Shown here: piece after piece, positions 3,360 to 63,772 of the stretch | Layout: each line of letters starts with the position of its first letter | Position numbering within the stretch: position 1 is the first letter of the stretch | Origin: a virus | Virus record (IMG/VR): IMGVR_UViG_3300020439_000005 | Span: 1-64,000 of that record | Direction: 5' to 3' (one strand) | DNA length: 64,000 nucleotides | Notes under the pieces: generated by a model | Seen by the model: only the letters and a program-made list of their open reading frames with translations | The model's database searches: none | Told to the model about the DNA's origin: nothing | Translations under genes and position numbers: made by a program

Positions 3360-3557
3360 TTATTGTTTCATCACGGGAGACGTCGTCTGCCACGCTTCTT
3401 CTATTACACGAACCACGTTGACGGACACGGGGTTAGTCCTTCTATCGAGTGCAAGTTCATACGCCTTTCTAAGGGCTACACCGACGTTTTTAGCGTCAAT
3501 TTCAACCTGCTCAACGCCTTCATTACCGAAGTCCACATTGACTCTGTATTGAGGCAT
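3360..3557 (-). CDS. Hypothetical protein (65 aa)
   Basis: ATG at 3557 lies 16 nt downstream of a GGTGGG promoter element. Confidence 0.6.
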   Translation of the reverse strand: MPQYRVNVDFGNEGVEQVEIDAKNVGVALRKAYELALDRRTNPVSVNVVRVIEEAWQTTSPVMKQ

Positions 3558-11606: not shown

Positions 11607-13562
11607 TCATTCAACGTCCTCTAAGTGGGATTCCATTAGCGATTCCCAAAGGGAGTCATTATCCACGTCTGCTGTTTTCAGCATAGTCGTCTTCATCTCC
11701 TCTCGTACTTCTCGCTTCGACGCCAACTTCTCAGTAGCGGTTGATTCCCATGTCTTATCGAACCATGCTTTGCCCGAGAACATTTGCGGTCGGTGTTCGC
11801 TATCCCCTGTGACTTTCCACAACAGGGAAGTCTTGCGGGCGATTGGACGGAAGTACGTAGGAAGGAACAGACTTCTCCAAACTTTCGATTCATCTTTCGT
11901 TCGACAACCGATTGAACGGAGCATGGCTCCTTCGCTCTTACTTAGTGAGCGAACTGAAATCGGAGAGTTGGAGGAAGACAGAACGTCATTGAAGTCAGAG
12001 ATAACGGCAGGTAGGTTATCACGTACGGCCTCTATGAATAGTGGCGTGAGTGCGTATGTATCTAACAGACCTTCTCTTGACTTGACGATTCGATATGTCT
12101 TGCGACCACCACCTCGACCACCACCTCGACTAGCGACTTCAATCAGACCTGCGTCTTCTAATGTCGGCAGGTGCTTATCCTTGATTTGAGATTTAGATAC
12201 TGAGTACGCATGTAGGTTCAGCCATTGTTGGATAGCGTCGATAGTCAGACGCCTCTTTGAGTCGGCCATATTCTGCATTTGGAGAAATGTATTCCATGCG
12301 TCATCGGGCACACCCGATAGGGACGCTCTCAATACTATGTCGCATAATAGAAGTCCAATCACATTATCCTCGATGGACGATAGAATGTATGTACCTGTGT
12401 CGTCGGTCTGTGTTGGTCGTTGCCTACTGTGAAGTAAAGTGACTGCGTCGATTACAGACAGAACCTTAGTGACGTCCCTCTGATGTTGAGCGTTCCGAGC
12501 CGGAAAGAAGTCCGCTAATAAAGGGGCAAATATGTTCCTCACTTTTTGCTTTCTAAGGGAGAGCATAGATGCTTGAAGAATATCTAGTTCGGGATTGACT
12601 GTGAAAGTCTCCGGTCGGGCTTTCGCTATGAGATGATTTTTGACTACATTACCGACCTTATCCGAATTGGACTGTGGAGTCATCAGTAGTTGTCTAGTCA
12701 CCTGCTCCTGTTCTTTTGGATTGCGTGTAGTTAGAGTGATGAATGCAGGTCGACCTCTGATGATGAAATCTCTAGTCTCAATCTCTCCGGTCATCTCGTT
12801 CTTCATCGGAGTTTTCCAAACCAACTCCTTATCGTCGCCGGACATGAGCGGCTTCATGCGCTGAATGAATGCGAACGATTCGTCCTTCTCTAAGACGATG
12901 ATACATTTCCCATCCACATTAACGATGAAGTTCCCATCCTCGTCGACCTCGTCGTAGTCGTACTTGAGAGCCTCACGGGATGCACCCGCTAGTACCATGC
13001 ACATAGATTTGGGGAACCCATTACGTGCGGTTAGAGTCATGTATGTTTTACCGGATGCAGATTGACCAATCATCTCAAGATTGAGCGGTGCATCTGTTTT
13101 ACATGATAGCATGACTAGGAATGTGAGAATGAGATTGGCGTCATCACCGACGAACGGCATGTCTCTTGATTCGTGAAGTATTTTGTTGACTCTGTCGAGC
13201 AACAACTCATCAGCCAATAGAGAATCGACGTCCCTATCTTCTATGTCTGCGTATAGAGTCTCGGCTTCTTTCTTCTCTGCTGAGACAAACTCTCCCGGTT
13301 CGTAATCCCCATCCTTGAGAATGATGCCCGCCTTGAGCATATCCAAAGCGAACGATTCGCTCTTGATTTTACAGTCCTTGGTCAGACGGTTGATACTATA
13401 CTGAGATAGAATGTTCACTTTGCCCCGTGGTTCACCATCGACTGATACGGTGAAGTCCATTCTCCCCTTTGTAGCAGATAGAAAGGTCAACACTACTTCG
13501 TGGTCTAGTTCCTCGATGTGATACACCATGGCGTTCTCTGATGACTGTCTAACGTGTACCAT
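11607..13562 (-). CDS. MCM-like AAA+ replicative helicase with C-terminal winged helix
   Basis: Walker A GQSASGKT, Walker B-like CIIVLEKDE, sensor-1 PAFITLTT, Arg finger VTRQ, sensor-2 QRDVTKVL; wHTH LEDAGLIEV...RKTYRI. Confidence 0.65.
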   Translation of the reverse strand: MVHVRQSSENAMVYHIEELDHEVVLTFLSATKGRMDFTVSVDGEPRGKVNILSQYSINRLTKDCKIKSESFALDMLKAGIILKDGDYEPGEFVSAEKKEAETLYADIEDRDVDSLLADELLLDRVNKILHESRDMPFVGDDANLILTFLVMLSCKTDAPLNLEMIGQSASGKTYMTLTARNGFPKSMCMVLAGASREALKYDYDEVDEDGNFIVNVDGKCIIVLEKDESFAFIQRMKPLMSGDDKELVWKTPMKNEMTGEIETRDFIIRGRPAFITLTTRNPKEQEQVTRQLLMTPQSNSDKVGNVVKNHLIAKARPETFTVNPELDILQASMLSLRKQKVRNIFAPLLADFFPARNAQHQRDVTKVLSVIDAVTLLHSRQRPTQTDDTGTYILSSIEDNVIGLLLCDIVLRASLSGVPDDAWNTFLQMQNMADSKRRLTIDAIQQWLNLHAYSVSKSQIKDKHLPTLEDAGLIEVASRGGGRGGGRKTYRIVKSREGLLDTYALTPLFIEAVRDNLPAVISDFNDVLSSSNSPISVRSLSKSEGAMLRSIGCRTKDESKVWRSLFLPTYFRPIARKTSLLWKVTGDSEHRPQMFSGKAWFDKTWESTATEKLASKREVREEMKTTMLKTADVDNDSLWESLMESHLEDVE

Positions 13563-13868: not shown

Positions 13869-14239
13869 TTCTCATCCTCCTCGGTGAAGTTCTCGTAGAA
13901 CCATTTGTCTAGTTCACTACGGGTGCGCTTACTTACCGAAGAATAATCTCGGGTATGCTCAGTTCTTTTGGAATACCAATCATCATGATTTTGCTTCAAC
14001 TGTTCGTAGTATCTATCATGGAACAGAATCCACTTAGTCATCAGAGAATCATGAACGAATCCTAGTTTTTGATATTGATTATTTACCCTATTCCAAAGAC
14101 TTTCAGCGTTTTTGTAAACAGGTTCCCCCTCGGGATGCAATACAAAACACATGACGGCTTTTGCTGATTTCAACTCCTTCTCAAAGTTAGGATGCCGCAA
14201 CTCGAATCGTGTTCGTTTTGCTATCATGGCCCTACTCAT
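13865..14239 (-). CDS. Hypothetical protein
   Basis: ORF; ATG 14239 overlaps the helicase stop. Confidence 0.6.
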   Translation of the reverse strand: MSRAMIAKRTRFELRHPNFEKELKSAKAVMCFVLHPEGEPVYKNAESLWNRVNNQYQKLGFVHDSLMTKWILFHDRYYEQLKQNHDDWYSKRTEHTRDYSSVSKRTRSELDKWFYENFTEEDEK

Positions 14240-15975
14240 GCTACGTGCCTCCTTAACCAACTAGGCATTTCCTTGATGTTCTGTCGGAACCACGAAGGAA
14301 GAAGCCCTGCATTCATTCGTTGAAATCTAGCCCACGATGAATCGAGAATGAAGATGTGTCCTTTGTCTGTTGGTGAACGAACGATACGACCTGCACCTTG
14401 TACAATAGTCAAGGCGGTTTGGAGATTGTACCACTTCTTACAGGGAGCGGGACAACCGAACGAGCCACACATGCCGTTGCTATACTTACTCGGGGGTTCG
14501 TACGGACAGTCGGGTCCTCCTTCGTGTTTGGCCCTCCACGCATGCTCGTCCTCCATTAGTCGTGTCGAGATAACAGGGTCGACCACGGGTAGGTATGGCA
14601 CTTTACAGAGAACCAACCACTCGGCTAGTTTGCCTTTGAAGTCGAATCCCTCGTTAACGTATGTTGAGATGAGGACTAGGTCGTCACGCTCGCTAGTCAT
14701 GAAATAATCGAGAGCGGCGTCGCGTCCCCCTGCATCCGAGTCATGCGTCACTATTCTATCCTCAAAGCCCGCCGCCTTGAGTCCTTCGACTAATGCCTTG
14801 CGTATGTAATGAGAATGTGGGAGTACGACTCCACGCTTGTTTGGAAATCTCTCCATGATTCCCTTAATGGCTTTGACTTGTTTTGGTATGGTCGTGTCTC
14901 TTTTGGAATACGACATAGAACCAACGGGGCAATAGTGAATGTTGAAGCAGTCTTTCGGGAATGGACTTTCAGTCACGTTGATGTACAGAGTCTTTTGATT
15001 CTCTAGTCCCATCGACTGTACGAACGTATCGACATCGAGTATAGTAGCCGAGAGGAAGATTCTCTTTCGGGCCACTCGCTCCAACATTTCTTCTGCATAG
15101 TCCTTCACACGAACGGGGTTGAACTCAACATACCTACCCGCTCTATTCGAGTCGAGTTTGACGACTAGATTTTTGGCGTTTTGAAGCAGAGTGAGAACCA
15201 TGCTTCCTTTCTCTAGTAAACTACGGAATGCCTTAATGTTGGAGTCATTCTCCTCGTCTTCGGCAAGTTTGAGATGTGCTTCGGCTGAGTTAACGAAGTC
15301 CTTGATGTCGTCCAACCAATCTGCGGCATGGTAGTGCATAGGGAAGTTCCACTTTGGACCATGGACCTTAGCCCAATCCCTCTGAGTTATTCTAGTTCCG
15401 AGAAGGTCGAGGAGAAATTGCTCCATCCTATGAGCCTCGTCGATGATTGCGAAGTCCCTTTGCTCAAACCGTGGGTCTCCCTGTATGACTCTAAAGAGAT
15501 AAGCCGGATTGGATAGCGTCACCCGTGAGTCGGCGGCGGCGAACTTCTGCTCGTAGTACGGACAGGGGTCGGCCTCCTTTGAGTGAGGACAGGAGCCGCC
15601 TCGCTTCGTCCAACAGGGGGCACCGTCGGCGGTCCCGCTCTTTATCCAACAGGGGAAGTTGGAGCGACCTCTTACCTCCTTTACCACGTGCCCGTAGTCA
15701 GCCATATACTGAGAAGCGAGACCGAGGCTTGGAGTTAGAAGGTAGGCGGATTGGAACTGTGCTTGAACGGTCATGGCTATGGCTGATTTCCCTATTCCGG
15801 TAGGTGCCTGTATCACGATGTTATCGAAGTCATCCCGCTCTAAGGCATGATAGATGACGGATAGTGTCTCCGACTGATATTTTCTAGGAGAGGGCATTGG
15901 GAAGTCTTCTCGTATCTCATCCCACTTATCCGGCAGTTTAGCCTTGGTTGGAATGTTGATGCGGACGACGGCCAT
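14236..15975 (-). CDS. SF2 DinG/XPD(Rad3)-family Fe-S helicase
   Basis: QAPTGIGKS, GRSNFPC..C..C..CPY, IIDEAH, LSATI, EGFDF, QGAGRIVRS; ATG 15975 is 16 nt from a class B element. Confidence 0.9.
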   Translation of the reverse strand: MAVVRINIPTKAKLPDKWDEIREDFPMPSPRKYQSETLSVIYHALERDDFDNIVIQAPTGIGKSAIAMTVQAQFQSAYLLTPSLGLASQYMADYGHVVKEVRGRSNFPCWIKSGTADGAPCWTKRGGSCPHSKEADPCPYYEQKFAAADSRVTLSNPAYLFRVIQGDPRFEQRDFAIIDEAHRMEQFLLDLLGTRITQRDWAKVHGPKWNFPMHYHAADWLDDIKDFVNSAEAHLKLAEDEENDSNIKAFRSLLEKGSMVLTLLQNAKNLVVKLDSNRAGRYVEFNPVRVKDYAEEMLERVARKRIFLSATILDVDTFVQSMGLENQKTLYINVTESPFPKDCFNIHYCPVGSMSYSKRDTTIPKQVKAIKGIMERFPNKRGVVLPHSHYIRKALVEGLKAAGFEDRIVTHDSDAGGRDAALDYFMTSERDDLVLISTYVNEGFDFKGKLAEWLVLCKVPYLPVVDPVISTRLMEDEHAWRAKHEGGPDCPYEPPSKYSNGMCGSFGCPAPCKKWYNLQTALTIVQGAGRIVRSPTDKGHIFILDSSWARFQRMNAGLLPSWFRQNIKEMPSWLRRHVA

Positions 15976-15991
15976 GATACTCAGTCGTGTC

Positions 15992-16006
15992 CTCACCTTC
16001 TTAATG
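15992..16006 (-). promoter_or_regulatory. Class B promoter (helicase)
   Basis: CATTAAGAAGGTGAG, 16 nt to ATG 15975. Confidence 0.6.
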
Positions 16007-16109
16007 TGGTGCGTCAGAGGAGGGGCCTATGAACGGGAAAAGATGTTAACAAAACCCACCGAGACAAACCCCTCCTCCGACGACTTGTTGAAGGTAATAA
16101 TGCCTCGGC
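16006..16109 (-). ncRNA. Putative pseudoknotted small RNA, copy 1
   Basis: S1 GCCGAGGCA/UGUCUCGGU and S2 CGUCGGAGGAGGGG/CCCCUCCUCUGACG; G-U wobbles only on the minus strand; own promoter 16 nt upstream. Confidence 0.7.
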
Positions 16110-16125
16110 AAATTGACCTATCACT

Positions 16126-16140
16126 CTCACCTATCTAAAG
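16126..16140 (-). promoter_or_regulatory. Class B promoter for ncRNA copy 1
   Basis: CTTTAGATAGGTGAG, exactly 16 nt before G16109. Confidence 0.55.
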
Positions 16141-16158
16141 GGAGCGGTATGATTTCGA

Positions 16159-16257
16159 GTGTTGCGCCGGAGGATGGGCGATATGTCGGGCAAATACACG
16201 AAACCCCACCAACGGGCACCCATCCTCCGACGACTTGCGAAGGTAAACCCCGTTGGC
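16159..16257 (-). ncRNA. Putative pseudoknotted small RNA, copy 2
   Basis: S1 GCCAACGGG/CCCGUUGGU and S2 CGUCGGAGGAUGGG/CCCAUCCUCCGGCG; compensatory changes relative to copy 1. Confidence 0.7.
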
Positions 16258-16273
16258 GAGTCGTCCTCTGACT

Positions 16274-16287
16274 CCCACCTATTTTAC
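16274..16287 (-). promoter_or_regulatory. Class B promoter for ncRNA copy 2
   Basis: GTAAAATAGGTGGG, exactly 16 nt before G16257. Confidence 0.55.
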
Positions 16288-16288
16288 T

Positions 16289-16672
16289 TCAACGGTTAGC
16301 CCAATAGGTACGACAGTCGTACTGAGCGGTCAGACCGACTTCGGTGGCCGCTCTTTCTAGTTCGCTGAGAAGGTCAATACAACCACATTCACATGAATGG
16401 CTACCGAGACTCGTCACGTGAGGGACTTCGATTTTAGCGATATAGAATGTGTCCGGCCAAGATTGGCGAGTGTTATTTCTCCATACAGTCTGCTTCTCAA
16501 TTAGTCCTCTGTCGATTCCCTTAGCGACCATTGGTCTAACTGTTTGGTTGTTGATGCGACACCATGAGTACGTAGCGTTGTCCGGTACGTACGTCCATGG
16601 TAGTTCGATTTGCTCCGTGGTAGGTAAAGATTGGATTTCCTCTATGATTTCTGCGATTGGTCTTGTTGCCAT
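16289..16672 (-). CDS. Hypothetical protein (class A promoter)
   Basis: ATG 22 nt downstream of the TATA box. Confidence 0.7.
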   Translation of the reverse strand: MATRPIAEIIEEIQSLPTTEQIELPWTYVPDNATYSWCRINNQTVRPMVAKGIDRGLIEKQTVWRNNTRQSWPDTFYIAKIEVPHVTSLGSHSCECGCIDLLSELERAATEVGLTAQYDCRTYWANR

Positions 16673-16694
16673 GTTTAAGCGGAGGGGGTTCCAC

Positions 16695-16718
16695 TATATA
16701 ACATGTATGTTTTGTGAA
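16695..16718 (-). promoter_or_regulatory. Class A promoter
   Basis: TTCACAAAACATACATGTTATATA, identical to 21047-21070. Confidence 0.8.
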
Positions 16719-16898
16719 ATGAATTATGATTATGACCAATATCTTGTACTACATACAGAGTTCTTGTGTGTGTGTGCCTGTAAGGGGTATTGAATTGGTT
16801 TTATTTCCGGTAGCCCCGTAGGGGCTAATGATGAGGGCTTTTCTTCGACGTATGACTTTCTAACTATATATCGGTGCAAAACCAATATGAAAAGTCAA

Positions 16899-18710
16899 TC
16901 AATTCAGACTCGAATTAGTCGCCATTCTGATAGTCGATGCTATGTCCGGCGGTGCCCTTCCAACTGTTATCGTCATAACAGAATCCATGACTCCGAAGTC
17001 CCAACCGATTGAGAATATCTCCTGTCGTCCGGCGAGACCACCATCAACAGATGCAAAGTCGATTATATCTCCGACTCTCATATCGAATCTCTCGGGCAAG
17101 CCCTCAACTATCCATTGACTGTATGCGATACCCTGTCGCATCAATATCTGTCGTGCTAGAGTCTCGGCATGTGCTTGAGTTGAGACGTTCTCATCCTTGA
17201 AGTATTTAGAGACCGCTCGACCTTGGTGGTTCAGAGATACTGTGGCCGTTATCGTTCCGTCTTTATTCTCGACAGTCACCGTGTTAAAGAAATCACTATC
17301 ATTGGTCACACGTTCTACCATGGTTGGGTAGAAATCCTGTGGTACTGATGTTCTCGGTATTCGACCTGCAACATAAGGAGTCAAAGTCGAATCGTGGAGT
17401 TCCCGCTTTTCTGCCACGTTGATGTACCCGTACGCATCTGCGTAGATTTGATATTGCCTCGGTGCTGAGTTTACGTAATTCAAAACACTTTGAATTGCTT
17501 GTAGTCTAGTCTTGCCTTTGTACTTCAAACCGACAGGAATAGTGAACGGAAGTTCGGCCATCATTCTACCTATTGGTGGTTTGTAGGATGAGTCGGCTAC
17601 TATCTCTTTGATTAGTGAGGCTATGTTGCCTACACCTGCTGAAAGTTCCTCTGTAATGTATTCGTTCGCCAAGAATCCTAGGGCGTCCATGCAAGTCAGT
17701 TTGATTTCATCAGACGTCTCCTCGATGCCCGATACAAAGCCGGTGAATATCAATGGAGGGTTCGACCACATTCTCGGGGCCAAGTAAACTTGGATTGTTT
17801 CACCTAACGATGCTACGCCGCTCCTTCGACCTGCAACAGAAGATACAGTTATCGACAAAGTTCGAGGTGAGTTCATTTCCTCCTTTGAGGTGATTTTCCT
17901 AACTCCATGTAAGGGCCTACTTCCATTCAGCATTACAGTTGGTTGCCTTGGTGTTGCTTCATCTTCGGCTATTTGACCGTAGATTGTACGACCCATTACC
18001 TGTCGTGAACGTACGAAGAATACCTTGTGAGGCCAATTATTCCTTAGATTGCCTAGTTGGAATTGTCTAGGTCTGTTCATCCATTGGAGACCCTCGGGGT
18101 TCCAACCACCATTCGAGTACCCTAACTTGCCTAGGTTGAAGGTCGGGTTTGGAAGGACGCTCGTAGGATAGTTCCCTTCGGTGGGTCCGGTGGTGAATGC
18201 AAAACCCCCACGTGGACCACCACCACGACGAGAAGTCAAATCGTATTGGTCGGGGAAGATGCTAGCCGTTGTATAGAGATAGCCGAACCCATCGTCTGCT
18301 CCTGTGTACCCATCATGTAGGTGCGGGTCGAATGGCTTAGGTGATGCTAGGTTAGTGTAGCAGTACGTCTTAGGTCCGGTGGTTCTCCATATATCAGTCC
18401 CTTGGTTGGGGTGGAGAATCAACCCTAGACCGAAGTCATTTGGATAGTGTGCGGGTCGGTTGATGTCTTCCTTATCTTGAGGGGTCATAGCGTGTTCGAC
18501 TTCTGCATCTTTACTGCGGAAGTTCATCCATTGTACTTCGGCCCACGTCCTAGATACAAAACGTGCTATTGCGGTCCTAGGACGACGTGGGTCCTCGGAT
18601 AATTCGTCAACATAAGATGCTAAACTCTCGGGTGGCGTGATGACGTATTCATCGTCGTTAGGGTGCCTAACAATGCGAGTATATCGCTCATTCTCGTCGC
18701 TCACGTCCAA
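16899..18710 (-). CDS. Tail/baseplate hub-like structural protein
   Basis: IFTGFVSGIEE..IKLTCMDALG and C-terminal VGDIIDF...QEIFSIGW are typical of tail hub proteins; at the end of the tail gene cluster. Confidence 0.6.
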   Translation of the reverse strand: MDVSDENERYTRIVRHPNDDEYVITPPESLASYVDELSEDPRRPRTAIARFVSRTWAEVQWMNFRSKDAEVEHAMTPQDKEDINRPAHYPNDFGLGLILHPNQGTDIWRTTGPKTYCYTNLASPKPFDPHLHDGYTGADDGFGYLYTTASIFPDQYDLTSRRGGGPRGGFAFTTGPTEGNYPTSVLPNPTFNLGKLGYSNGGWNPEGLQWMNRPRQFQLGNLRNNWPHKVFFVRSRQVMGRTIYGQIAEDEATPRQPTVMLNGSRPLHGVRKITSKEEMNSPRTLSITVSSVAGRRSGVASLGETIQVYLAPRMWSNPPLIFTGFVSGIEETSDEIKLTCMDALGFLANEYITEELSAGVGNIASLIKEIVADSSYKPPIGRMMAELPFTIPVGLKYKGKTRLQAIQSVLNYVNSAPRQYQIYADAYGYINVAEKRELHDSTLTPYVAGRIPRTSVPQDFYPTMVERVTNDSDFFNTVTVENKDGTITATVSLNHQGRAVSKYFKDENVSTQAHAETLARQILMRQGIAYSQWIVEGLPERFDMRVGDIIDFASVDGGLAGRQEIFSIGWDFGVMDSVMTITVGRAPPDIASTIRMATNSSLN

Positions 18711-18772: not shown

Positions 18773-19045
18773 GTGAGAGTTCTCAAGCCGGAGAAGGGAT
18801 ATTGCTTAGTTAGACGATGGGTACCCGAACAGACTACTACATCGGGTGTGATAATACAGGATGACGCCGCCTCATACGGCTTCGGTGTTATTGATGCAAT
18901 TAACCCCGATGGAGGCCGAGAATACGACGTAGGCACCATTGTTTTGATAGCAAGTGATAAAGGAACTCCCGTTCAATGGAACGGTAATGTATGTCTCATG
19001 GTTAAGATATACGACATAATAGGAACCGTGGAGGAATCAGAATGA
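18773..19045 (+). CDS. groES: Co-chaperonin GroES (Cpn10)
   Basis: LKPEKGYCLV..EQTTTSGVII..VGTIV..DIIGTVE; overlaps groEL start; likely GTG start at 18773. Confidence 0.8.
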   Translation: MRVLKPEKGYCLVRRWVPEQTTTSGVIIQDDAASYGFGVIDAINPDGGREYDVGTIVLIASDKGTPVQWNGNVCLMVKIYDIIGTVEESE

Positions 19046-20616
19046 AGCGTTCGATATTTGGAGAAGAAGCAAGAGAAGCATTGATGCGAGGAATAGACGA
19101 AGTCGCTAACTCAGTAAAACCAACACTAGGACCTGCGGCTCGTACTGTTATACTAGAGAGGCAGTATGGTTCTCCTATCGTCATCAACGACGGTGTGACT
19201 ATTGCCAAGGACATAGATATGAAAGAGGACCCGTATGCTAATCTCGGTGTTCGCTTGATTCAAGAAGCCGCAAGCAAGGCTCAAGATAACGCAGGTGATG
19301 GTACTACTACTGCGTCGATACTAACTCAGTCTCTATGTACGAAGGGGTTAGCCGAGATGAAGACAGGTAGGAATCCAATCCATATCAAAAAGGGATTCGA
19401 TAAGGCGGTCGAAATTGCAGTAAAGGCGATTGAAGACGCATCTCAAGATGTCGACGACGAATCTTTGGTACACGTTGCTACTATCGCCGCCAACAATGAT
19501 GAGATGATTGGTGGTTTGATTGCCGAGGCTTTCGGCAAGGTCGGTCGAGATGGAATCGTCTCGATTGAAGAATCGAACGGTCTCGATACGACGCTCGAAG
19601 TTGTAGATGGTTTGGAGTTTACTAAGGGTCTCCTTAGCCCACACTTCCTCACCGATGAGGAAAAACAAATCTCGATTTTGAAGAATCCGTTGATTTTGAT
19701 TACAGATGAACACATCAAACACGCTCAAGAGATTGTTGATGTTCTGAATTATTCTGCTGAGATGAAAAGACCATTACTCATCGTAGCGGCTAAACTCGAA
19801 GGAGAAGCACTTGCTACACTCGCTTTGAATGCCACACGTGGCGTCCTTGAAGTCGCCGCAGTTGAGGCTCCTTCCTTTGGTAATTCACGTGAAGAAATCC
19901 TCACCGATATTGCTACGGTCGTTGGTGCAGTTCCTATTTTTGCTAGCAAGGGAATGTCGACACAACGGAACGGCATAGAGTCGCTAGGTCGTGCTAGTAC
20001 GGTCAAATGCTCCATGAAGCGAACTACAATAGTCGGTGGAGCAGGTGTTGATTCTGATATTAAGAAAAGACAGGAGGCTTTGATTGCTCAGTCGAAAGAG
20101 GCTGAGACTGATTGGGAAGCCGAGGCTCTGCGAGCAAGAGCGGGCAAGATTTCCGGTGGAGTAGCGGTACTACATATCGGTGGTAAAACAGAAGCCGAGA
20201 TGAGGGAGCGTGTGGCACGTGTCGACGATTCTCTGAATGCTACTAGAGCGGCCCTGCAAGAGGGAATAGTGCCGGGTGGTTCTATCATGTACCTACGTGC
20301 TAGGGATGAGATTCTTGATGCCTCAGATGATGCCGAAGGGGACGTTTGGTTGGGTATGATGATGGTTCACGATGCCTTGAGCGAACCGTTCCATCAGTTA
20401 TGCTACAATGCAGGTGTCGACGGCTCAGAGGCTTTGGATAAGGTCGTCGAGATGAACGACCCTACATACGGTCTGAATGCTAAGACGCTAGAGTACGGAG
20501 ACCTGCTAGAACAGGGAGTCATAGACCCTGCGAAGGTCGTCAAGAACTCACTAGAGACTGCGGCGTCAATAGCGGGTCTCGTATTGACCACCGAAGTTCT
20601 AGTCGCTGAGGACTAG
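19042..20616 (+). CDS. groEL: Group I chaperonin GroEL (Cpn60)
   Basis: TLGP, NDGVTIAK, AGDGTTT, EGIVPGG, GVIDPAKV motifs. Confidence 0.97.
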   Translation: MKRSIFGEEAREALMRGIDEVANSVKPTLGPAARTVILERQYGSPIVINDGVTIAKDIDMKEDPYANLGVRLIQEAASKAQDNAGDGTTTASILTQSLCTKGLAEMKTGRNPIHIKKGFDKAVEIAVKAIEDASQDVDDESLVHVATIAANNDEMIGGLIAEAFGKVGRDGIVSIEESNGLDTTLEVVDGLEFTKGLLSPHFLTDEEKQISILKNPLILITDEHIKHAQEIVDVLNYSAEMKRPLLIVAAKLEGEALATLALNATRGVLEVAAVEAPSFGNSREEILTDIATVVGAVPIFASKGMSTQRNGIESLGRASTVKCSMKRTTIVGGAGVDSDIKKRQEALIAQSKEAETDWEAEALRARAGKISGGVAVLHIGGKTEAEMRERVARVDDSLNATRAALQEGIVPGGSIMYLRARDEILDASDDAEGDVWLGMMMVHDALSEPFHQLCYNAGVDGSEALDKVVEMNDPTYGLNAKTLEYGDLLEQGVIDPAKVVKNSLETAASIAGLVLTTEVLVAED

Positions 20617-57722: not shown

Positions 57723-57802
57723 CTGAGGGGTGGTGGAGAAGGGGATGATTACAACAACCAATTGAGGGGGTTGCCGCCCCTTCTCCGTGGCTCCCCCCTC
57801 AG
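57723..57802 (-). other. Structured 3' element (pseudoknot or long hairpin) after the MoxR gene
   Basis: UGAGGGGG/CCCCCUCA and GGAGAAGGGG/CCCCUUCUCC stems. Confidence 0.55.
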
Positions 57803-62854: not shown

Positions 62855-63772
62855 TCATATCTCTCCGTGTAAATGTGCTAAGTAGCCCTGTTCGTCAAAG
62901 CCTTTCTTATCTAACTCAACTAACGTCATTCCGTAGTTGTCGATTTCTTCTCCTTCCCATTCGGATTTTTTTCCCAATGGAATATCTTTGAATGGTTTGT
63001 AATTAACATGGTGATGATGTCGATTGAATCTCCAAACGACTTTCGCTACATCGGGGTGCATGTCTTCTAACATCTTAGATTTCAGATAGGTTCCATCCTC
63101 AGAATAAAACTGTTCATGATTACCACCACCCATTCTTTGTGTAGTCACTTTGCCCTGTAAGAAGGCGTTGAATTGTAATGTAGCCCAACCGTCTTTCAAG
63201 ACTCTCAAGCATAAGTCCGTATCTTCATTGTATCTCCCTCTCCACCGATAAGGAATATCGTTCCGAATGAAAAGGCATGAGTAAATCCGTGTGTTCTTGA
63301 CGTACGGAGGCACACCGTCATTCGACTTAACAAATGAATAGTAGTTAGGTCCCGAGATTGCTATGTTGTCGTATCGAAGAACGAAATCCTCCATGGCTCT
63401 AAAGATTGTACCACTTGTGACTTCGGCTTTGATATTCTTATTGACTCTGTGAAAGGCATCCAAATTATCATCCATCACCCAATGATGAGAATATCCTCTT
63501 TCGATAGAATGGTCCCATGCAAAATTGCGAGCCGCTCCCGGTCCTATCCTTGGGTCGTCATCGTCCCAAAATACATCATATTCTTCATTGTATTTTTTGG
63601 GGGTGACTAGAATCTTATCGGGGTCGACCACCTTTGCATATTTTTCATACTCATGTTCTTCGACGATAAGGTGAAATGGAATCCTGTTCAGTTCCAAAGC
63701 CTTCACGGTGAGGCGACGTCGTTCATCCCAACGACCTTTTGAGACGACGTAAATTGGGAAGTTAGGATTCAT
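62855..63772 (-). CDS. GT-A glycosyltransferase, TET-associated/GREB1-like family (probable DNA base glycosylation)
   Basis: PIYVVSKGR, GAARNFAW, WVMDDN, IYSCLFI, RGRYNEDTDLCLR, MGGGN. Confidence 0.75.
   Translation of the reverse strand: MNPNFPIYVVSKGRWDERRRLTVKALELNRIPFHLIVEEHEYEKYAKVVDPDKILVTPKKYNEEYDVFWDDDDPRIGPGAARNFAWDHSIERGYSHHWVMDDNLDAFHRVNKNIKAEVTSGTIFRAMEDFVLRYDNIAISGPNYYSFVKSNDGVPPYVKNTRIYSCLFIRNDIPYRWRGRYNEDTDLCLRVLKDGWATLQFNAFLQGKVTTQRMGGGNHEQFYSEDGTYLKSKMLEDMHPDVAKVVWRFNRHHHHVNYKPFKDIPLGKKSEWEGEEIDNYGMTLVELDKKGFDEQGYLAHLHGEI

Follow-up and report, generated by a model that had tools for sequence, protein, structure and literature searches.

Several described systems hold short structured RNAs that resemble the elements reported here. 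In the preQ1-II riboswitch, a gene-leader element, the strands of two helices and a hairpin follow each other in the order S1a, loop, S2a, S1b, hairpin, joiner and S2b. In the hepatitis delta virus (HDV)-like ribozymes, the 5' nucleotide takes part in the first helix pair, often a G-U, this helix stacks on a hairpin (P4), and a joining strand (J4/2) connects this hairpin with the 3' strand of another helix, which closes a pseudoknot; CPEB3 and the drz families are among them. The phage T4 gene 32 pseudoknot, the translational operator of a replication protein, is of the H type and lies at the very 5' terminus of the transcript of a viral replication gene, ahead of the ribosome-binding site. 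The exonuclease-resistant RNAs (xrRNAs) and the 5' stabilizers of bacteria and phages are compact pseudoknots or stem structures at or near the 5' end, which could block 5'-to-3' decay mechanically. Finally, the put RNAs of phage HK022 and the pRNA of phi29 are short structured RNAs situated right after an early viral promoter, with two copies per genome being possible.

Each of these traits has a counterpart, in some cases only in certain lineages, in a pair of RNA elements that we describe from the window, i.e. 64 kb out of an 80.7-kb virus record (IMG/VR record IMGVR_UViG_3300020439_000005). Its gene content fits a magrovirus, as indicated by a thermosome-like chaperonin and an XPD/Rad3-like helicase (Table 1). 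Magroviruses are among the most abundant archaeal viruses of surface oceans; to our knowledge none has been cultured, and we know of almost no elements for 5'-end protection or translational control of such a kind in archaea. The two elements, copy 2 and, downstream of it, copy 1, are found between a 127-aa open reading frame (ORF) and the helicase gene on the minus strand, which carries nearly all genes of the window. Each forms an H-type pseudoknot at a fixed distance from a promoter-like motif, and the same architecture was found in 15-17 distinct sequences from five magrovirus lineages. The elements belong to none of the families named above, and the RNA family has not previously been described in Rfam or in the literature searched. 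We tentatively favor, with slightly less than even confidence, an explanation in which they are structural modules that begin at a transcription start in the replication-gene region, protect the 5' end and may gate translation, and which in this genome have been duplicated and are probably released as small RNAs.

Fold and covariation of the pseudoknot RNAs

In both copies the strand order is S1a-S2a-S1b-S2b, which makes them H-type pseudoknots. A preliminary description, made from the letters of the window, had proposed two tandem, paralogous and strand-specific pseudoknots with a 9-bp S1, a 14-bp S2 and a GGG/CCC hairpin (here P4), and a re-reading of the helices on the minus strand reproduced this fold (Table 1). 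Both 14-nt S2 arm pairs were also recovered by an inverted-repeat search of the window. Five S1 pairs differ between the copies, four by double compensatory changes and one by a change from G-C to G-U, so that pairing is preserved as had been claimed; three further pairs differ in S2, with pairing kept in all of them. Compared with shuffled sequence, the nested part of the fold gave z-scores of -3.1 and -5.05 on the minus strand, versus -0.37 and -3.14 on the plus strand. Across the whole 80.7-kb genome, covariance models matched just these two copies.

Relatives were gathered with the helicase protein, from 25 and then 75 viral loci and thereafter from 79 metagenome loci. Members were found by reading the upstream regions and by running three successive covariance models, built from the two window copies (R1), eight lineage-A sequences (R2) and 14 sequences (R3), respectively. 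The helicase is the constant downstream neighbor of the RNA family, with orthologs of 56-85% identity at about 100 loci. Lineage A (helicase 81-85% identical) comprises the two window copies, L001, L002, L003/L004, L009, L010 and L123; lineage B (62%) L046, L052 and L020; lineage C (64%) L018 and L165; lineage D (62%) L019 and L021; and lineage E (61%) L023. Each genome has a single site, which in every case precedes the helicase and shares its orientation. Under default filters, R1 and R2 missed lineages C, D and E, and L023, a real member, escapes all three models. With R3, neither 30 other magrovirus records nor 36 further metagenome loci yielded a convincing new member, and its weak matches at G015:5114 and at position 63252 of the window lacked the fold on inspection. 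Either the family has a restricted distribution, therefore, or it has diverged too far for the models. Searches at the level of sequence added nothing: blastn of the locus against a phage collection returned no similar DNA, and a scan of viral contigs for the exact loop and S2a consensus gave 0 matches because the sequence is too variable. A pseudoknot descriptor was too loose, with 259 matches versus 122 in shuffled sequence.

As MAFFT misaligned the helices, the 15 members from the five lineages were segmented by coordinates. Standard pairs occupy 128 of 133 cells in S1 (96.2%), 207 of 208 in S2 (99.5%) and 56 of 56 in P4 (100%), compared with 57%, 54% and 80%, respectively, when 3' strands were swapped. 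Up to five pair types occur per position in S1 and up to six in S2, while P4 appears as GGG/CCC, GAG/CUC, GGAG/CUCC, GGGAU/AUCCU, GAGA/UCUC or CGGCGG/CCGCCG. Partner swaps leaving at most one unpaired position numbered 15 out of 182 for S1 and five out of 182 for S2. In a model-made alignment restricted to S2 and P4 (A8), 98.7% was paired versus 62.5% after shuffling, 15 of the 17 pairs change on both sides, and none of 500 shuffles reached any of the observed measures; with the register slid by 1-3 columns, 40-56% was paired. The structure guided the making of both alignments. This inflates the percentages paired and must be held against them, but the bias does not explain the swapped and slid controls or the number of pair types. 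Covariation among homologs, the lack of which had been named beforehand as grounds for refutation, was strong. The preliminary description had also taken imperfect pairs of the G-U kind as fixing the strand. Among the members, 33 out of 371 helix cells are G-U, corresponding to A.C mismatches on the other strand, and the strand is therefore fixed as minus. In L165, which came from the metagenome scan, S1 is kept through three C-to-U changes that yield G-U pairs. In addition, an extra helix that extends S1 in lineage C (L018 and L165) by means of added L2 nucleotides covaries, with compensatory changes in L165. We regard it as virtually certain that the pseudoknot RNA family is real.

The same data bear on whether the region might instead consist of short leaderless ORFs or chance inverted repeats without a functional RNA, which we find hardly credible. 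Transcripts in lineage B, and those of a variant pseudoknot in lineage D (PK'), would start with AUG, and an ORF of 39-47 codons runs from there to the start of the next gene. The lineage A copies, however, have no start codon at +1, and the lineage B ORFs lie in different frames relative to the RNA alignment (L046 versus L020). Moreover, the close relatives L046 and L052, with identical S1, differ by a 1-nt indel in L1, by which any reading frame is shifted, and by 2 nt in the P4 loop. Compensatory substitutions in three helices also speak against coding or chance.

With S1b and P4a directly adjoining (0 nt) in 14 of 15 members and an L2 of 0-2 nt in 14 of 15, one strand runs unbroken through S2, S1 and P4. 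From these junction lengths it would seem that the three helices can stack coaxially, giving a rod of about 26-30 bp; the 5' nucleotide would be placed where S1 meets P4, the point from which J4/2 also departs. As their first pair, five members have G-U, four G-C, three A-U and three A.C. Unpaired positions are mostly variable, apart from a near-invariant AAG before S2a and a CA after S2b (13-14 of 14 members each); the flanks of the P4 loop are U-rich, with U in at least 10 of 14 members. Of the conserved loop and 3' tail proposed from the two copies, the AAG and CA have thus stood, whereas the loop motif ACCUUC is reduced to a CU-rich stretch, e.g. ACCUUC, ACCUC, ACUCC, AUCACAUC or UCCACC, which resembles an anti-Shine-Dalgarno (anti-SD) sequence. 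S2b is pyrimidine-rich, and the SD, where present, is downstream of it. Judged from this pattern of conserved positions, the RNA would fit a shape-based or protein-binding role, but neither a ribozyme nor an aptamer for small molecules. We rejected a triplex of L1 with S2 in the major groove, as L1 and the purine-rich S2a run antiparallel. A signal for frameshifting or readthrough was likewise rejected, the elements being intergenic, behind a promoter motif and devoid of a slippery site.

The likeness to HDV-like ribozymes noted in the preliminary description did not survive closer comparison. A self-cleaving ribozyme, HDV-like or of a new class, would cut at its own 5' edge and free itself from upstream RNA (copy 2 or, in lineage D, PK'). 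Several features would agree with this, i.e. the paired 5' nucleotide, with its G-U pairs and the isosteric A.C pairs, the S1/P4 stack with the 5' end and the joining strand at the junction, as in the P1/P4/J4-2 topology of HDV, an RNA-library contig from copy 2 with one end no more than 4 nt from where copy 1 begins, and the presence in lineage D of a second pseudoknot, downstream of PK', that is not at the transcription start. On the other hand, the pseudoknot element has no P3/L3 (0-2 nt between S2a and S1b in 14 of 15 members), no partner for P1.1 and no conserved catalytic C, since the first five J4/2 positions vary and L001, L003 and L046 have no C at all in J4/2. Its S2 is one continuous helix of 11-16 bp, and neither the HDV and CPEB3 models nor those of other ribozymes gave a match even at E<=10. 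Membership in the HDV-like ribozymes was rejected on these grounds. Any ribozyme would further have to do with unpaired positions that are almost all variable, unlike any known ribozyme core, and with nothing to cleave off if transcription starts at +1; we consider self-cleavage very unlikely.

All 15 members share the preQ1-II helix order, which, together with the leader position in lineages B and D, a possible sequestration of the SD by L1 and tandem copies that recall tandem riboswitches, might point to a riboswitch or another ligand- or temperature-sensing leader in control of the helicase operon. Such a role is improbable, as the highly conserved unpaired nucleotides typical of aptamers are missing, long stable stems (14-16 bp) suit switching poorly, and a promoter separates the element from the gene in three lineages. 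Compared with preQ1-II itself, the stems are longer by a factor of two to three, the SD does not form the 3' strand of S2, the conserved binding-pocket sequence and any Rfam match are lacking, and the carriers are archaeal viruses and not Lactobacillales. The preliminary description had recognized no family, and the searches agree: Rfam 15 gave 0 matches at the gathering score in the whole window and 0 at E<=10 in the region 15700-16600 (cmscan), and ARAGORN found 0 tRNA or tmRNA genes in the window. The tail reads CA(A/C)C, with ACCA in copy 1 only, which differs from a tRNA-like CCA-type end. The magrovirus papers searched do not mention any promoter motif or non-coding RNA. Tan1, known from work in the Red Sea as an abundant RNA of Marine Group II, was set aside as a 229-nt host RNA distinct from the pseudoknot element.

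Promoter-like motif, gene context and RNA-library contigs

Each copy is preceded by a class-B promoter-like motif, consisting of a TATA-like A/T-rich box and GGTGGG (copy 2) or GGTGAG (copy 1), and in both cases the motif ends exactly 16 nt before the 5' G of the RNA. The claim that the same spacing precedes several genes also holds, since the distance from the motif end to the ATG is 16 nt at 3557, 6595, 11553, 15975 and 57683, and it is 18 nt at 13562, all on the minus strand. Of about 75 related viral loci, nearly all have the motif at this spacing before the helicase ATG. The A/T box thereby falls at about -30 to -23 relative to the ATG or RNA start, and in archaea a TATA box at this position fits a transcript that starts at the ATG, i.e. 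a leaderless mRNA. The spacing before the six ATGs of the window would accordingly imply leaderless mRNAs, as far as can be judged from the sequence. In 13 of 15 family members, S1 starts 15-18 nt, mostly 16 nt, after the GGTGGG, and if the class-B motif is a promoter, the fold therefore starts at +1. A second promoter type, AAACCTTTATAT, is found about 26 nt before ATGs in related loci, e.g. in L046 and L090.

What follows the pseudoknot differs between lineages. In lineage D (L019 and L021), the helicase ATG is located 13-14 nt past the pseudoknot, with AGGAG or GGUGA in between, while in lineage B (L046, L052 and L020) a GGUGA and the ATG of a 69-aa ORF follow after about 21 nt and the helicase another ~900 nt further on. 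An SD and an ATG are thus found 13-24 nt past the pseudoknot in both lineages, and the element is therefore physically an mRNA leader there. The three other lineages (A, C and E) have a full class-B motif, serving the helicase ATG, 10-33 nt past the pseudoknot. The proposal that the copies are independent RNA genes accordingly remains probable for the window, where each has its own promoter motif, and fails for lineages B and D, where the element is the 5' leader of a protein-coding mRNA. In the lineage of the window, the own promoter, the duplication and the separation by the promoter of the helicase together make it probable that small RNAs of about 100-150 nt are formed. No conserved protein partner emerged from the gene neighborhood, as both the 127-aa ORF upstream of the pair and the 69-aa ORF of lineage B are lineage-specific.

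Four RNA-library runs from a single marine sample, compared with positions 14500-17500, all gave the same 155-nt contig, one end of which lies exactly at the predicted 5' G of copy 2 (16257) and the other 4 nt into copy 1. Its depth of 2-5 is similar to that of contigs from neighboring ORFs. Contigs of this kind show presence and do not prove ends, strand or transcription, and a single sample is concerned; we take the contig as weakly suggesting a discrete RNA, about 150 nt long and starting at 16257, and transcription of the element as such. The discrete transcripts expected from the preliminary description thus gained some backing for copy 2. Copy 1 (16006-16105) and the promoter region 16258-16358 are not covered by RNA-library contigs, from which no conclusion is drawn.

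That the element is a stand-alone small RNA acting in trans is the main rival to a 5'-end module, and we consider it possible but on balance doubtful. The pseudoknot would then be a stable scaffold from which the exposed CU-rich L1 or the U-rich P4 loop would bind SD-like sequences of other mRNAs or a protein, e.g. an Sm-like protein or a transcription factor, and where the element is part of a leader it would be cut out or have a dual function. The own promoter motif, a separate promoter for the gene that follows (lineages A, C and E), the tandem duplication in the window genome, the discrete 155-nt contig, the resemblance of L1 to an anti-SD and the conserved U residues flanking the P4 loop are all in line with such a role. 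Against it speak the position of the element in the mRNA 5' untranslated region in lineages B and D, an L1 sequence that is not conserved and hence offers no common target in trans, the lack of a terminator-like T-run past the pseudoknot and an RNA-contig depth no higher than that of neighboring genes.

A role linked to replication was also considered, in which the transcript, or the same strand in the form of single-stranded DNA, would serve as primer at a nearby origin, form an R-loop there or be a structure recognized by primase or helicase. The element adjoins the helicase and other replication genes, conserved palindromes or hairpins are adjacent in many lineages, and tandem promoters occur at the origin of phage T7. 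The cumulative GC skew has a local minimum near 16-18 kb, but this is weak evidence, being confounded by gene orientation, and is uninformative about an origin. The fixed distance to the promoter motif, like the leader context, speaks for a function at the RNA level, and the 33 G-U pairs would be unusual for DNA pseudoknots, which makes this role unlikely.

A possible 5'-end module

In the favored explanation of a 5'-end module, the RNA of a magrovirus, i.e. a virus of Marine Group II archaea, would be made from the class-B promoter, with its first nucleotide already engaged in the first pair of the fold. A rod-like H-type pseudoknot of about 95 nt would result, in which the continuous strand S2a-S1b-P4a, with junctions of 0-2 nt, would pair in turn with S2b, the 5' end (S1a) and P4b. 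The nucleotide bearing the 5' triphosphate would thereby be buried at the S1/P4 junction, and the pseudoknot could shield the 5' end from 5'-end-dependent decay. For such a protective role, xrRNAs and bacterial 5' stabilizers would be the nearest analogy, although no three-way-junction ring fold was detected in the pseudoknot element, no Rfam xrRNA matched it, and the archaeal host has enzymes of the RNase J/aCPSF2 type and not Xrn1. For lineages B and D, the leader pseudoknot of T4 gene 32 may serve as the nearest functional analogy, the magrovirus element being much larger and without sequence relation to it; the position in the leader is shared by these two lineages, whereas in the lineage of the window a promoter motif intervenes. 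The HK022 put RNAs and the phi29 pRNA have different folds and no sequence relation to the element, for which nothing points to antitermination or DNA packaging.

The CU-rich, anti-SD-like L1 might in addition pair with a purine-rich element downstream, which would either gate translation or add a third helix. L1 is complementary to such an element 10-35 nt downstream, over 6-10 bp, in five cases. In copy 1 of the window (W1), L1 UUACCUUC faces GAAGGUGA over 8 bp, and GAAGGTGA in the promoter motif of the helicase gene is the 8-bp complement of the same UUACCUUC. The corresponding partners are AUACCUCA and UGGGGUAU in L002 (8 bp), UUAUCACAUC and GGUGUGGUGA, a variant motif, in L010 (10 bp), AAACUCC and GGAGUUU, the SD, in L021 (7 bp) and UAAAUC and GAUUUA in L020 (6 bp). 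For lineages B and D this downstream partner is a true SD, and for lineages A, C and E it is the GGTGRG motif that comes next. The promoter motif of copy 1, as RNA, is likewise complementary to the CU-rich L1 of copy 2. Paired with its own tail, L1 reached a mean of -8.6 kcal/mol versus -6.3 kcal/mol with tails of other members (permutation p ~0.0008). We treat the pairing, whether as a third helix or a translational gate, as a lead only.

Several observations weigh against the 5'-end module as a whole or in part. The pairing of L1 with the downstream element is absent in L046, L052 and L009, its partners are compositionally biased (CU-rich versus G-rich), and L1 is also able to pair with S2a. 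As a complete promoter motif separates the pseudoknot from the helicase ATG in three lineages (A, C and E), most of their helicase mRNA may be leaderless and without a pseudoknot. The contig of copy 2 stops at the start of copy 1 and does not extend into the helicase gene, which fits a stand-alone RNA better than a leader. Furthermore, the 30 magrovirus records without a match suggest that the element is not universal, unless the models are too narrow.

A more far-reaching version, which we put forward as a rather improbable speculation, is that the 5'-terminal pseudoknot is an archaeal counterpart of xrRNAs with a cap-like function. It would form from the first transcribed nucleotide onward, bury the triphosphate and block archaeal 5'-end-dependent decay, while its anti-SD-like loop would restrain SD-dependent initiation and thereby favor the leaderless replication-gene mRNAs of the virus.

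Whichever role applies, a covariation-supported RNA family tied to a virus-specific promoter class and a replication module offers a handle on the organization of early transcription. The architecture, with the 5' end built into a probable coaxial stack of 26-30 bp, is new among pseudoknots and gives a testable candidate for archaeal 5'-end protection or translational control. It may also be used as an RNA marker to find certain magrovirus lineages in metatranscriptomes.

Coordinates and neighboring elements

Table 1. The two pseudoknot RNAs, their promoter-like motifs and other features of the window. Strands of helices are separated by a slash and numbered in the direction of the RNA.
Feature	Position	Strand	Description	Basis
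Copy 2 pseudoknot core	16165..16257	-		strand reading, fold statistics, inverted-repeat search, covariance-model matches
Copy 2 S1a / S1b	16257-16249 / 16216-16208	-	9 bp	
Copy 2 L1	16248-16233	-	16 nt	
Copy 2 S2a / S2b	16232-16219 / 16178-16165	-	14 bp	
Copy 2 L2	16218-16217	-		
Copy 2 P4	16207-16205 / 16190-16188	-	3-bp GGG/CCC hairpin in loop 3	
Copy 2 J4/2	16187-16179	-	9 nt	
Copy 2 tail	16164-16163	-	conserved CA	
Copy 1 pseudoknot core	16012..16109	-		strand reading, fold statistics, inverted-repeat search, covariance-model matches
Copy 1 S1a / S1b	16109-16101 / 16066-16058	-	9 bp	
Copy 1 L1	16100-16083	-	18 nt	
Copy 1 S2a / S2b	16082-16069 / 16025-16012	-	14 bp	
Copy 1 L2	16068-16067	-		
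Copy 1 P4	16057-16055 / 16037-16035	-	3-bp GGG/CCC hairpin in loop 3	
Copy 1 J4/2	16034-16026	-	9 nt	
Copy 1 tail	16011-16006	-	CACCAC	
Class-B promoter-like motif of copy 2	16274..16288	-	TATA-like A/T-rich box 16288-16280, GGTGGG 16279-16274	
Class-B promoter-like motif of copy 1	16126..16140	-	TATA-like box, GGTGAG 16131-16126	
Class-B promoter-like motif of helicase gene	15992..16005	-	TTAAGAA, GGTGAG 15997-15992; 16 nt before ATG 15975	
XPD/Rad3-like helicase gene	14236..15975	-	579 aa	Pfam Helicase_C_2, ResIII, DEAD
127-aa ORF	16289-16672	-	CxCxC motif	
Thermosome-like chaperonin	19042-20616	+		
155-nt contig	16106..16257			four RNA-library runs, single marine sample
Smaller element	57723-57802	-	order S1a, S2a, S1b, S2b	

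The 127-aa, zinc-finger-like ORF directly upstream of the RNA pair gave no match in a Pfam search. Homologs with 35-45% identity are found at the same position in L001 and L010 and not in the other lineages.

The variant pseudoknot of lineage D, PK', precedes the regular one and starts where transcription is predicted to begin (~3776-3870 in L021 and ~3760-3870 in L019). It opens with AUG, its S2a follows directly after S1a, and a 12-nt CU-rich loop lies between S2a and S1b. Both stems differ between L021 and L019 with complementarity kept, and the tails read GCAACAC and ACUAAC. As lineage D also has tandem pseudoknots, tandem pairs arose at least twice.

Other magrovirus lineages (L011-L017, L025, L125, L192, L137, L022 and L044) have a different structured element at the same site, 100-150 nt upstream of the helicase ATG, with a long CCCAUAGAGCGCG-type stem, an inner hairpin of GGGGG/CCCCC and a loop that is CU-rich. 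A core of 19 nt in this element occurs in opposite orientations in L011 and L022, because the CCCAUAGAGCGCG-type stem is near-palindromic.

Perfect palindromes of the type GCCCCC-TAAA-GGGGGC, as well as CACACATA...TATGTGTG hairpins, are found in the large intergenic region by the replication genes, both in the window (~16700-16850) and upstream of the helicase region in L003, L018, L019, L021, L023, L054, L059, L063, L069 and L095. These conserved structures could be terminators or origin-related sites.

Lastly, the smaller element at 57723-57802 shows the same strand order as the main family, whose covariance models do not pick it up. It extends from the stop codon of the gene upstream to about 29 nt ahead of the class-B motif of the 57683 gene. 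In its counterpart in the related complete genome L200, the S2 arms are wholly different yet complementary and the tail is a similar AACAC, so that from the two sequences the structure looks conserved between the window and L200.

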